DNA of 64,000 nt from Corallococcus exiguus (GCF_017302975.1 NZ_JAFIMT010000003.1), one strand, 5' to 3'. Shown: positions 9,293 through 51,659, counted from the stretch's first letter. Notes: generated by a model from the sequence alone, not told the origin. A program made the numbers and translations.

Positions 9293-10180
9293 CTATGCGA
9301 GCAGCGTGGCGTCCATCACGGTGAGGGCCACTCCACCGACGCGTGCGCGCTCGATGTGGCCTGGCCGGCCGGTAACCTGGATGTCGATGCGGCCCGGCTT
9401 GCCGAGCGTATCGCCCTGTTCGATGCGACCCGACACCGTGCCACCGTGCTCCGGCAGGCGAAGGCTCCCGTGCTCGGCGAGCCAGGCCGCGAGCGGTCCC
9501 GCGGCGGAGCCCGTCACGGGGTCCTCCAGGATGCCGAAGCCCGGGACGAAGTAGCGCGCCTGGGCCACGCTCCCCTCCTCCTTCGCTTCACGGGTGAAGA
9601 GGTAGACGCCGCGCAAGCCGTGCGGCATCAGCAGCGCGTTCATCGCCGCGCCCCGCGGCGTCAGGGCCTCCAGGTCCGCGAGCCGCCGGAGGGGCACCAC
9701 CAGCCGGTGGCCATGGCGGATGACCGGCAGCGACGGGTCCACCTGCGATGCGGTCCCGCCCACCGTGGCCATCAGCGCGTCCAGGGCCACGGGGTTGGGC
9801 TGCGCGGGGGGCGGGGGCGTGGCGATCCACACCCGAGTCCCACGCGTGCCCTGAGGCTCCAGCTCGATGCCGAACGTGCCGCCGGGACACTCCAGCGTGT
9901 ACGTCCCCGGGCTTCGCAGGAGCCCCTTCTCCGCGAGCAGGTGGAAGGTGGCCACCGTGGCGTGGCCGCAGAAGGGAATCTCGTCCACGGGCGTGAAGTA
10001 GCGCAGGCGCACGGTGGCGTCGCCGGGCCGGGACAGCAGGAACGCGGTCTCCGACGCGCTGACGGCCGCGGCGGTCCGCTGCATCGTGGGGACATCCAGC
10101 GCAGCGGCGTCGAGCACCACGCCCGCGCGATTTCCCGCACCGGCGGTGCGGGTGAAGGCATCGATGATGTGGACCTGCAT
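9293..10180 (-). CDS. PhzF family phenazine-biosynthesis-like isomerase
   Basis: The C-terminal 295 aa of an 835-aa ORF has the PhzF/DapF-like fold signature (MQVHIIDAFT...GNRAGVV...ETAFL...FCGHAT). ATG at 10180. The upstream 540 codons look like a non-coding high-GC read-through. Confidence 0.8.
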   Translation of the reverse strand: MQVHIIDAFTRTAGAGNRAGVVLDAAALDVPTMQRTAAAVSASETAFLLSRPGDATVRLRYFTPVDEIPFCGHATVATFHLLAEKGLLRSPGTYTLECPGGTFGIELEPQGTRGTRVWIATPPPPAQPNPVALDALMATVGGTASQVDPSLPVIRHGHRLVVPLRRLADLEALTPRGAAMNALLMPHGLRGVYLFTREAKEEGSVAQARYFVPGFGILEDPVTGSAAGPLAAWLAEHGSLRLPEHGGTVSGRIEQGDTLGKPGRIDIQVTGRPGHIERARVGGVALTVMDATLLA

Positions 10181-10324
10181 GGGCGGACTCCGGACAGGGC
10201 AAGGGCCTGGGAAACAGCGCAGGCATGCTCCGCCTGGACCGTTGGCGTCAAGCGCTGGACCGACGCACCGGAGCCCCCACAACAGGGTTGAACGAGAGCG
10301 CCCGAGCAGGCACAGCACGGACGC

Positions 10325-11101
10325 ATGAATCTCCTGAAGTCGGGTGGGTGGGTGGTGCTGGTGGTGTTGCTCCACGCGAGCGGCGCGGCGGCACAGATCG
10401 TCAATGTGCAGGCGCTCTTCGACGAGAAGGCGGAGCCGGGGCCGGCCGCGGCCATCGAGTTGGGCGGCGACTGGCGCACGGGCAGCACGGAGCTGTTCTC
10501 CATTCGGGGCTCCCTGGTGGGCCAGCTGCGCTCCGAGCGCGACGTCTGGCTGGGCGTCATCCGGGGTGAGTATTCGTTCGCCAGCGGCGAGCGCATCGTC
10601 AGCCAGGCGCTGGAGCACGTGCGCTACCGGCGCAAGCTCACGGACACGGTGTCGGGCGAGATCTTCGCGCAGCACGAATACAACGAGTTCCGCCGGCTCC
10701 AGCTCCGGATCCTGCTGGGCGCGGGACCGCGCTTCATCCTGCTCAACGAGGACAGCATGGGGCTCACCTTCGGGGTGGCGCTGATGCTGGAGCACGAGCG
10801 GCTGCGCAAGGACGGCGAGCCGGACGCGGGAGACCGCTACACGGATCCGCGAGTCTCCAGCTACCTGCTGGGACGGATAAAGCTGATGGAGAACATCAAC
10901 CTCGTGGAGACGGTCTACATCCAGCCGCGAGTCACCCGCCCCTCCGACCTGCGCGTGCTCAACGAGACGATCTTCGCGGTGACACCCAACCCCCGCGTCA
11001 CGGTGGGCATCGGCTTCAACCTCACCTACGACAGCGCGCCGCCCGCGACAGTGCCCGCCCTGGACACGCAGCTGCGCACCACGGTGGGCGTGAAGCTTTG
11101 A
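10325..11101 (+). CDS. DUF481-type outer-membrane beta-barrel protein (YdiY-like) with signal peptide
   Basis: Signal peptide (VVLVVLLHASGAAAQ). The sequence looks like the DUF481/YdiY outer-membrane family (recalled, not searched). 258 aa. Confidence 0.65.
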   Translation: MNLLKSGGWVVLVVLLHASGAAAQIVNVQALFDEKAEPGPAAAIELGGDWRTGSTELFSIRGSLVGQLRSERDVWLGVIRGEYSFASGERIVSQALEHVRYRRKLTDTVSGEIFAQHEYNEFRRLQLRILLGAGPRFILLNEDSMGLTFGVALMLEHERLRKDGEPDAGDRYTDPRVSSYLLGRIKLMENINLVETVYIQPRVTRPSDLRVLNETIFAVTPNPRVTVGIGFNLTYDSAPPATVPALDTQLRTTVGVKL

Positions 11102-11495
11102 GTGGATTGCAACGACCGCGTTGACGAACCGGGCGCGGAAGCCAGGCTCGAAAGGAAGCGTCTTCCCCAACGTCAACGGCTCATCCACGGTCACCGCGCG
11201 CGGCGTACGCATGGGGCGCGGCACCACCAAACCCCGCGCCGCGATCCACCGAAGCGCGTCGCGCGCTGTGTCCCGGAATACGGAATGGAGACGCTCCAGC
11301 TTCGCTTCCGAGCCGAACCGCGCACGGGCCGGCAGTCCCCCCAGCGAAAGCCCACGCTCAAACCGCGCCCCCACATCCGCCACGCCCCCCACTCGCACCA
11401 TCCCCATCCCCTCTTCGTCCCAGCGTCGCCATCCAACCACAGGGGTCTGACATGGGCGCGACGGCCCACGGTCCGCGTCACCCGCCAAGGCAGCG

Positions 11496-11573
11496 CGCCC
11501 CCGGGCCCCGTGCGCCGAAAACCTGTCCGACTGTCGGACAGGTTTTGAAGGAACCAGCCCCGGGTGGGCGCCG
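11496..11573. repeat. Intergenic ~77 bp repeat copy 1 containing perfect palindrome AAACCTGTCCGAC-T-GTCGGACAGGTTT
   Basis: Seen directly. Sequence CCGGGCCCCGTGCGCCGAAAACCTGTCCGACTGTCGGACAGGTTTTGAAGGAACCAGCCCCGGG. The GC-rich stem is flanked by AAAA and TTTT. Confidence 0.8.
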
Positions 11574-11635
11574 CTGTCCAAGCCCTCACCTGGACTTCGC
11601 TCACGCATGACATTGCGCACCCGCCGGGCCGGCAC

Positions 11636-11711
11636 GGCCCCGGGCCCCGTGCGGCGGAAACCTGTCCGACTGTCGGACAGGTTTTGAGGAAACCGGCCCC
11701 GGGAGGGCGCC
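11636..11711. repeat. Intergenic ~76 bp repeat copy 2 (same palindrome core)
   Basis: About 90% identical to copy 1 and lies 62 bp downstream of it. Sequence CCGGGCCCCGTGCGGCGGAAACCTGTCCGACTGTCGGACAGGTTTTGAGGAAACCGGCCCCGGG. Confidence 0.8.
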
Positions 11712-11855
11712 TCTCTTCGTGGGCCCGCCCCGCCGTCCGCTCCTTCACCACGTCGAGCCCTATTGCCGCACCCCGCCAAGGGACGCGCCGCCGCGAACAC
11801 CGGATCACGGATTCTGTTGGAGAGCTCCTGGCGGCCTACCTGAGGTTAGGCTTCA

Positions 11856-12710
11856 GTGATGGCGTCCCACTCCATTCCCGCCCCCGTCGTCCTATTGGGG
11901 GGCGGCAAGATCGCCGAAGCCCTCATCCTGGGACTGTTGCGGTCCGGCCATGTGCGTCCGTCGGACCTTCGCGTCACGGTGCGCCGGCCCGAGCGCGGAG
12001 AGGAGCTGCGCTCCCGACACGGCGTGCACGTCCTCATGGACAACGCGCAGGCGGTGCGGGGTGCGGCCGTAGTCGTGCTGGCGGTGCGACAGGCGCAGCT
12101 GCGGGACCTGATGGAGGTCATCTCGCCTGCCTTGGAACCTGGGCAGACCGTGGTGTCGCTCTCCGCGGACGTGCGACTCGCGCAGTTGGAAGCGGCGCTG
12201 CCCTCCAGCGTCTCTGTCATCCGCGCACTGCCCCATACGCCCGTGCGCGTGGGAGCAGGCGTGACGCCCCTGACGGCCGGGAGCCGGGCGACGGAAACCT
12301 CAAGGCTGGCCACCGAGGCCGTCTTCGCGGCGACGGGACGGCCCATGTGGATGACCGAGGAAGCGCTCACGGTCTGCACCGGCGTGTGCGGCACGGGCCC
12401 CGCGTATGTCTTCCGCTTCGTGGAGACCCTGGCCCAGGCCGCGATGGCGCACGGAATGGACGCGGCGGAAGCGGCGGCGCTCGCGAAGGAAACGCTCATT
12501 GGCGCGGCGAAACTGTTGGCCGAACCCGGCGCCACCACCCCTCGCCTCATCACGGAGATCGCGACCCCGGGAGGCATCACCGAGGCGGGGCTGATGGCGA
12601 TGGACTCCCACGGTCTGCCTCGCGTCGTGGGCGAAGCGGTCTCCGTCGCCATCCAGCGCACCCGGGAGCGCGCGGACGCGAACGCCGCGGCCTACAGCGC
12701 TCCGAAGTGA
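11856..12710 (+). CDS. proC: Pyrroline-5-carboxylate reductase
   Basis: NADP-binding N-terminus (VVLLGGGKIAEALI) and the ProC C-terminal dimerisation domain (TPGGITEAGL). 284 aa. Confidence 0.85.
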   Translation: MMASHSIPAPVVLLGGGKIAEALILGLLRSGHVRPSDLRVTVRRPERGEELRSRHGVHVLMDNAQAVRGAAVVVLAVRQAQLRDLMEVISPALEPGQTVVSLSADVRLAQLEAALPSSVSVIRALPHTPVRVGAGVTPLTAGSRATETSRLATEAVFAATGRPMWMTEEALTVCTGVCGTGPAYVFRFVETLAQAAMAHGMDAAEAAALAKETLIGAAKLLAEPGATTPRLITEIATPGGITEAGLMAMDSHGLPRVVGEAVSVAIQRTRERADANAAAYSAPK

Positions 12711-51560: not shown

Positions 51561-51659
51561 GGTAGGGCCTCCGGACCTGGTGGCCGGCCCGGTCTTCAAA
51601 ACCGGTGAGGGACTGCGAGAGCAGTCCCTGGCGAGTTCGATTCCCGTGCCCTACCGCCA
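51561..51659 (+). tRNA. selC: tRNA-Sec (anticodon TCA), 99 nt
   Basis: 8-bp acceptor stem GGTAGGGC/GCCCTACC, G discriminator plus CCA. Anticodon arm CCGGT-CTTCAAA-ACCGG. 8-bp long extra arm GGGACTGC-GAGA-GCAGTCCC. T-loop GTTCGATTC. Overall layout resembles E. coli selC as recalled. Confidence 0.7.

Follow-up and report, generated by a model that had tools for sequence, protein, structure and literature searches.

A palindrome repeated upstream of proC in Corallococcus exiguus: probable operator core of a decayed multi-copy FadR/GntR regulator cassette

Several described systems resemble the repeat considered here. Neisseria intergenic mosaic elements (NIME) consist of 50–150-bp RS units separated by a 20-bp palindrome, dRS3, which is a target of phage integration and recombination and is not known to have an associated regulator cassette. 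Rickettsia palindromic elements (RPE) are 100–150-bp insertions that add peptide segments. REP/BIME/REPIN-RAYT systems are found in Enterobacteria and Pseudomonas, and a repetitive element of Myxococcus xanthus was reportedly described by Fujitani, Komano and Inouye in J Bacteriol in 1991. Among transcription factors, the GntR family has the palindromic motif NyGTNxACNy, and the FadR subfamily the motif TKGT-N3-ACMA with a 3-nt spacing between GT and AC (PMC4494728).

The present repeat lies between a DUF481 gene and proC in a 64,000-nucleotide stretch of Corallococcus exiguus DNA, the whole of which is called the window below. Its core, named PAL, is a perfect 27-bp palindrome (13+1+13), AAACCTGTCCGAC-T-GTCGGACAGGTTT. 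The original prediction placed it upstream of proC, as an element of a gap free of ORFs. This framing missed the main point, which is that the element is part of a decayed regulator cassette on the opposite strand; the position of PAL beside proC is an accident of insertion. The explanation that accounts best for the observations as a whole, and that we hold to be fairly probable, is that PAL is the conserved core of a decayed multi-copy regulator cassette and the operator for the cassette regulators. The literature search found no paper describing the palindrome, its arrays or the multi-copy cassette, nor pertinent work on myxobacterial REP, MITE or RAYT sequences.

The DUF481–proC gap in the window

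The features of the gap are as follows.

11102–11841, unstranded: whole inserted segment, its extent taken from comparison with C. caeni and C. praedator, where the DUF481–proC junction is empty
11168–11401, minus strand: pseudogene, truncated and degenerate; N-terminal ~78–80 codons (~2–79), the winged helix-turn-helix region, of a FadR/GntR-family regulator
11408–11461, minus strand: promoter/5'-UTR box of the cassette, from paralog alignment; reads ..CCCATGTCAGACCCCTGTGGTTGGATGGCGACGCTGGGACGAAGAGG on the minus strand
11479–11575, minus strand: repeat unit copy 1, PAL1 with imperfectly complementary GC-rich arms, from direct- and inverted-repeat search
11519–11545, unstranded: PAL1, perfect palindrome, centre 128 nt upstream of the regulator-remnant start; 0 differences from the ortholog in Corallococcus sp. 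AB045
11618–11714, minus strand: repeat unit copy 2; the promoter segment with PAL has been locally duplicated in tandem
11658–11684, unstranded: PAL2, same palindrome as PAL1; it precedes the remnant start by 267 nt and the proC ATG by 175 nt, and has 0 differences from the ortholog

PAL is exact at both of its sites, which are the only ones in the 64-kb window. The PAL pattern with up to three mismatches had 0 occurrences in 100 dinucleotide-preserving shuffles of the window, so no such match is expected by chance, and the claim of a perfect palindrome occurring twice in the gap stands. Two of the accompanying figures needed revision: the copies are 139 bp apart from start to start, not 138 bp, and the directly repeated unit is ~97 nt long with 87% identity, not ~77 bp. 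The 139-bp period is about twice the 70 bp usual in the family; locus L056 (L numbers denote fetched loci) has seven units like those of the window at 134–139 bp, with two wider spacings of 252 and 276 bp. The regulator-facing arm of copy 1 is homologous to the same arm of other cassettes in the paralog alignment. Each copy had also been placed within a larger imperfect inverted repeat. This holds for copy 1, which lies between 42-nt arms that are 74% complementary and has a folding z-score of -4.5, and less well for copy 2, with z-scores of only -1.9 and -1.45.

The gap had been described as 750 bp without a credible ORF. A GC3-based gene caller indeed finds no intact gene in 11102–11841, but the minus-strand pseudogene fragment at 11168–11401 was overlooked: it is 58% identical to the regulator protein of L068 (tblastn, E 1.4e-16). 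The fragment has no Pfam match, its GC3 is 0.80 vs 0.87 in intact copies, and it ends ~65 nt from the DUF481 stop codon. The adjoining promoter box contains a third half-site-like sequence, TGTCAGAC, and abuts a Shine-Dalgarno-like run; it is kept across the aligned paralogs and recognisable even in a homolog with 49% amino-acid identity.

The orthologous gap of Corallococcus sp. AB045, whose ProC is 94% identical to that of the window, allows decay and constraint to be compared. Over the whole gap 140 of 763 aligned columns differ (18%), and the remnant peptides share only ~66% of their residues, a sign of neutral decay. None of the 54 PAL positions differs and the ~55-nt promoter box is nearly unchanged; their maintenance thus does not depend on the dead gene beside them. 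An exact-protein search gave no identical database record for the ProC and DUF481 proteins of the window.

Two further observations concern gene calling in the window. An 835-codon ORF on the minus strand (9293–11800) is a high-GC run-on artefact that joins a real PhzF-family gene (9293–10180), the antisense of the DUF481 gene, the GntR remnant and both PALs; ORFs read through PAL because it has no stop codon in any frame. The only Rfam match in the window is a selenocysteine tRNA gene at 51561–51655 on the plus strand (RF01852, 71.5 bits).

The regulator cassette and its insertion beside proC

Window positions 11163–11545 are 70–77% identical to more than 20 other PAL loci (blastn against fetched loci), and the sequence common to them is a FadR/GntR-family regulator gene, present by tblastn in 23 loci and the window. 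The cassette protein matches Pfam GntR (PF00392, E 2e-13) and has a NanR/FadR-like C-terminal region; NCBIfam NanR/FadR models and E. coli FadR (PDB 1hw1) align as far as about residue 200, FadR over residues 8–206. In an intact cassette, ~1.7 kb long, the leader of ~170 nt comes first and PAL second; the promoter/5'-UTR that follows (~130 nt) includes a conserved ATGTCAGACC..GGATGG box. Then come the regulator gene of about 330–420 codons (a ~235-codon conserved core, then a variable tail) and, after a conserved stop codon, a short trailer. The left end is sharp, ~300 nt upstream of the start (AGGTCGCCAGAAGTTCGT...), and often directly follows the stop codon of the neighbouring gene. A strongly conserved box, TCCATGTCAGACCCCTCTGGTTGGATG, includes a PAL-like half-site in the paralog alignment, and GGAGG stands 9 nt before the ATG.

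In every one of the 24 copies the PAL centre precedes the start codon by about 100–130 nt, and in 18 the distance is 127–132 nt. Many cassettes have a second PAL ~0.9–1.3 kb downstream, in frame within the poorly conserved, weakly coding C-terminal tail of the regulator ORF (peptide GNLSDCRTG); this PAL, e.g. L068:6587–6613 and L100:1575–1601, is more degenerate than the invariant upstream one. Upstream of PAL, the leader carries a conserved 10-bp inverted repeat, CTCCGCGAGG-N7-CCTCGCGGAG (e.g. in L100 and L070, about -240 to -210), which could be a transcription insulator, a terminator or a binding site.

At least 11 paralogs occur in C. exercitus SDU142 among the fetched loci. The protein database holds 266 relatives, of which the best 120 are all Corallococcus proteins annotated as "FadR/GntR family transcriptional regulator", and SDU142 alone accounts for at least 13 distinct 90%-identity clusters. 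Differences between paralogs at codon positions 1, 2 and 3 number 1190, 751 and 2186, and the winged helix-turn-helix region is best conserved; the third-position bias is the pattern of purifying selection and marks the copies as functional genes. Core coding sequences are 96–97% identical between some paralog pairs, and some cassette copies are recent duplicates. The GntR gene is the sole recurrent family among 214 proteins encoded beside PALs, where no transposase or recombinase recurs.

The metagenome scan gave only one relative, a soil homolog at L129:1395–1470 with 49% identity and the same recognition helix (GVSRGTVREA). It keeps half of PAL (CTCTCCGACTGT), at -93, as well as an ATGTCAG box, while the rest of its upstream DNA has diverged. 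This half-PAL suggests that PAL arose from a promoter site already present in the ancestor. PAL is absent from viral contigs and the cassette from phage and plasmid collections, and a phage or plasmid origin was accordingly rejected.

The orthologous junctions (L121–L128, matching window 11099–11861) differ in content between species.

C. caeni and C. praedator: 15–16-bp gap, TAG GAGTAGACTCC..ATG, no insert
L127: 165-bp gap with one stand-alone-type PAL element (~150 bp)
C. aberystwythensis: the same PAL element as in L127, with a HigB/HigA toxin-antitoxin pair (L128:2448–3154)
Strain EGB: ~3 kb with an intact 421-aa GntR gene, PAL at -133, and a degenerate PAL array of 50-bp period
Strain EGB: IS630-like transposase debris beside the GntR cassette (L122:1840–2640)
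AB045 and the window: truncated regulator remnant with two PALs

This variation is direct insertion polymorphism at a junction that is an insertion hot spot, and it identifies the window copy as a cassette that was inserted and later decayed. The comparison shows that one Corallococcus lineage gained a cassette, or a PAL element and then a cassette, in the space between the DUF481 stop and proC. The gene had been reduced to ~80 codons in the common ancestor of the window and AB045, both of which have the PAL-bearing promoter piece as two tandem units. The window copy is 74% identical to the EGB cassette at the same site, no more than to paralogs elsewhere, so that a single shared insertion is not thereby established. 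The right-hand flank of the window insertion resembles the element of L127 and L128 only ambiguously. By the insertion proC was parted from the DUF481 gene and now lies 740 bp from it, while the two are near-contiguous in related species. At L127, the one junction examined for ends, clear terminal inverted repeats are absent, the only candidate target duplication is a possible 3-bp AGG, and no parent IS was found.

Copies and arrays of the palindrome across genomes

The copy-number search called for by the original prediction was made with the 21-nt core CCTGTCCGACNGTCGGACAGG, one genome per species, in 8-kb blocks. The core occurs in at least 120 blocks, nearly all from Corallococcus; C. exercitus SDU142 contributes at least 38 of them and C. 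coralloides KYC2213 at least 15. Among the matches listed, a few blocks come from Hyalangium, one Archangium MAG and two other myxococcal MAGs, and none from Myxococcus. The fetched loci, ~1 Mb in total, contain 164 exact 21-mer cores and 291 25-mer copies with up to four mismatches. At least 97 of the 120 listed blocks have no GntR gene within the 8 kb.

A home-made GC3-based gene caller assigns PAL to 93 intergenic gaps, of which 26 lie between convergent, 44 between co-directional and 23 between divergent genes; in 11 further cases PAL falls inside called genes. Stand-alone clusters have a median distance of 77 nt from gene 3' ends vs 206 nt from gene starts, and are nearer the upstream stop in 31 of 34 co-directional gaps. 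Most copies belong to tandem arrays with a dominant period of 69–73 bp or its double, and also 50, 84, 92 and 125 bp. Arrays reach 13 units, e.g. L034:629–1758, L116:6462–7079 and L052:802–1372; for these three and many other stand-alone arrays no associated gene was found. Within an array the ~43-nt spacers resemble one another, and a directional spacer consensus, ccgcYgcYcggatggagcgg..gccgcggtcctcc, is common to different loci. Pairwise identity within arrays is 0.92 for PAL vs 0.66 for spacers.

At one end, many stand-alone arrays carry a conserved segment, GTGCGGTGCGCCGCC...TTCTCACCTTCTCATCC, with a GGACA..TGTCC hairpin (23 loci). No fixed relation of this segment to neighbouring genes was found, and its derivation from the cassette was rejected since local alignment scores did not exceed those of shuffled controls. 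The central base of PAL is A or T about equally often. Orienting copies by this base was abandoned when the flanks failed to align, the central base not being an orientation marker, and orientation was taken from the spacer/arm consensus instead. A CRISPR reading of the ~70-bp arrays was also rejected: the spacers are 0.66 identical pairwise and have a consensus across loci, and the tandem units match at 73–93%. PAL arrays may nevertheless be mistaken for CRISPRs or sRNA genes, and ORFs running through PAL inflate gene calls.

PAL is further found in frame inside genuine NRPS genes (L091:3861, L093:7367 and L085:3267), where GC3 stays high. In L091 and L093 it occupies the A2–A3 loop of the adenylation domain (peptides PVRQSDRF and PVRLSDRL), and in L085 it is in the condensation domain. 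The A2–A3 distance with PAL is 75 residues, as in paralogous domains without it, which indicates that PAL replaced sequence there and was not added. Another arrangement is seen in an uncultured myxococcal MAG, CAVYSY (L007, L009, L015, L020, L027 and others), in which single PALs lie within a longer near-perfect palindrome of ~75 bp, cccgggcgcg-ttttcag-PAL-ttgaaaa-ccgcgcccgg. In their flanks the window copies are similar to this arrangement, and no GntR gene was seen in the CAVYSY blocks.

Function of the palindrome and known systems

Four identities had been offered for the repeat: an operator of a dimeric regulator, a REP/MITE-like element, a bidirectional terminator and a small structured RNA. 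The first two gained support from the analysis, and the last two were weakened by it. PAL is most likely the operator of the FadR/GntR cassette regulators. It carries two FadR-type boxes (CTGT-N3-ACAG), CTGTC-C-GACAG and CTGTC-G-GACAG, which overlap at the centre, where the A or T decides which of them is perfect. In CTGT-CCG-AC and GT-CGG-ACAG it matches the FadR motif at six of eight specified positions per 11-mer, with the outermost positions mismatched, a match that is only suggestive because the GT-N3-AC motif is short. Together with these boxes, the fixed distance upstream of the regulator gene in all 24 cassettes supports a dimeric-regulator operator, and the boxes, the half-PAL of the 49% homolog and the GntR gene as sole recurrent neighbour favour the operator reading. 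Dimers of the cassette regulators would bind PAL; in intact cassettes a regulator bound there would regulate its own gene, and the proteins encoded by the many intact paralogs would bind in trans to the orphan PALs of the window. Beyond the cassettes, the PAL core would have multiplied in the intergenic DNA of Corallococcus, both as lone copies and as tandem arrays of ~70-bp period. If PAL is the operator, more than 10 near-identical FadR-type sensors with divergent effector domains and tails would share one common site scattered in hundreds of copies and arrays, a natural co-expansion of a transcription factor and its site that could serve as a model for regulon birth or factor titration.

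Several observations speak against the operator and bring in its main rival. Most PAL blocks have no GntR gene, clusters lie near gene 3' ends and about a quarter of the gaps are convergent, a distribution typical of REP-like DNA and not of promoter operators. Hundreds of perfect 25–27-bp copies, arrays and long imperfect outer arms are atypical of transcription-factor sites; the two boxes, 8 bp apart from centre to centre, have an unusual geometry for two dimers; and PAL occurs in frame inside NRPS genes. PAL might instead be a REP/MITE-like selfish hairpin, copied in trans by a transposase of the RAYT/IS200 type or another kind, in which case the GntR gene would only have picked up PAL within its promoter and its tail, and conservation would come from recent copying or homogenisation. 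We regard this as possible though unlikely. It would fit the high extragenic copy number (the 38 or more blocks in one genome included), the arrays, the ~150-bp element present in L127 and missing from the empty sites, the preference for the region just after stop codons, the embedding in longer imperfect palindromes, symmetric compensated variants such as AACTGGTCC..GGACCAGTT, and the in-frame NRPS copies, which are reminiscent of the Rickettsia elements. The stand-alone elements also have their own terminal segment (TTCTCACCTTCTCATCC and the GGACA..TGTCC hairpin), unrelated to the cassette. By their 3'-end setting, arrays, terminal segment and compensated variants they have REP/MITE-like traits, and the selfish hairpin stays a serious rival. 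However, no transposase recurs among the 214 neighbour proteins, there is no GTAG-type REP head, the arrays are direct and not inverted REPIN pairs, and the examined junction has no clear terminal inverted repeats or target-site duplication. Recent copying cannot explain the absence of change in orthologous PALs amid an 18%-diverged context, nor a half-site at the same promoter position in the 49% homolog, and the unaltered length of the NRPS domains does not agree with simple insertion. If PAL is nevertheless such a hairpin, it represents a REP-like family in Myxococcota of which no report was found, linked to a regulator and not to a transposase. A more speculative reading, which we think improbable, is that regulator and operator propagate themselves together: the cassette and its PAL site would spread through Corallococcus genomes as mobile or selfish DNA of a new kind, in which the regulator stands where RAYT stands in REP systems. 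The regulator might draw host enzymes of recombination or replication-repair to PAL hairpins, and the hundreds of orphan sites so produced would rewire or buffer the network formed by the more than 10 regulator paralogs.

It is very unlikely that PAL is the core site of an attC/dif-type site-specific recombination, at which cassettes and spacer units integrate and excise. The 10-bp arms AAACCTGTCC/GGACAGGTTT around the 7-bp centre GACWGTC, readable directly from the sequence, have the look of such a site, the cassette carries two PALs 1.0–1.3 kb apart, array units are separated by PAL, and the same junction has a PAL-only element in some species and PAL with the cassette in others. Yet no integrase or recombinase gene was found beside PALs among the 214 proteins, and the near-palindromic centre gives no directionality. 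The PALs do not bound the unit either, since the second lies inside the ORF with homology continuing for ~260 nt beyond it, and the left end of the unit is ~170 nt outside PAL. A bidirectional intrinsic terminator, or a hairpin stabilising mRNA 3' ends, is very unlikely indeed. PAL as RNA would form a 13-bp stem (-19.9 kcal/mol, z = -5.5) flanked by A3–4/T3–4, and the median distance of 77 nt after stop codons and the 26 convergent gaps of 93 agree with this role. A terminator scan of 11000–12000 nevertheless gave 0 sites because the U-tract is too short (a T-run of 3–4 vs at least 5 needed). About 25% of the gaps (23 of 93) are divergent, PAL is upstream of the gene start in 24 of 24 cassettes, and 418 nt separate PAL1 of the window from the DUF481 stop. 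Variant copies have 81 wobble-type, 223 broken and 9 compensated pairs among those that changed, roughly as under unconstrained substitution and with no excess of structure-preserving changes. The lack of excess wobble or compensatory changes weighs also against a small structured regulatory RNA encoded in the gap, which can be nearly discounted. The hairpins are stable, and the ~55-nt box, kept in both the window and AB045, could be RNA, but the conserved pieces are accounted for as promoter and operator of the cassette gene, and the scan for sigma-70-like promoters and terminators found neither. The Rfam search proposed with the original prediction gave no family at the gathering threshold in the region, also with a permissive E-value, or in 18 array-bearing loci; the best match, Rhizobiales-2, scored 26.9 bits vs a gathering score of 40 (E 0.7).

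Among known systems, the FadR-subfamily GntR regulators (E. coli FadR, PdhR, LldR and DgoR) are alike in the GntR winged helix-turn-helix, the FadR-like helical C-terminal domain, the 3-nt spacing of GT-N3-AC, the site upstream of the own gene and an additional half-site-like box nearby. In contrast to these systems, the cassette gene and its site are present in at least 11 copies per genome (C. exercitus SDU142) in unrelated contexts. FadR operators are degenerate A/T-rich 15–17-mers, whereas PAL is a perfect GC-rich 27-bp palindrome that also has hundreds of orphan copies and arrays and occurs once inside the regulator's own ORF.

The REP/BIME/REPIN-RAYT systems share with PAL the hundreds of extragenic palindromes clustered after 3' ends, lineage-specific vertical inheritance and one characteristic linked protein-coding gene. 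The gene linked to PAL is, however, a multi-copy transcription regulator and not a single-copy HUH transposase; RAYTs (Y1 HUH transposases) are single-copy, and none was found among the 214 proteins encoded beside PAL. PAL is also symmetric (AAACC..GGTTT), has no GTAG/GTGG head, and forms direct ~70-bp tandem arrays instead of inverted doublets. NIME are similar in that a conserved short palindrome punctuates arrays of more variable 40–120-bp intergenic units, although the sequence of PAL is unrelated to dRS3. RPE are similar as palindromic repeats in frame within protein-coding genes, but the 21–27-bp PAL sits in NRPS loops with no change of length. The M. xanthus repeat of 1991, as described, is likewise a dispersed intergenic repeat of a myxobacterium. 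PAL apparently combines an operator-like function, as in the FadR family, with a distribution like that of REP, BIME and NIME, and the two palindromes of the window are an ordinary fossil of an unusual and, it seems, undescribed genus-wide system.
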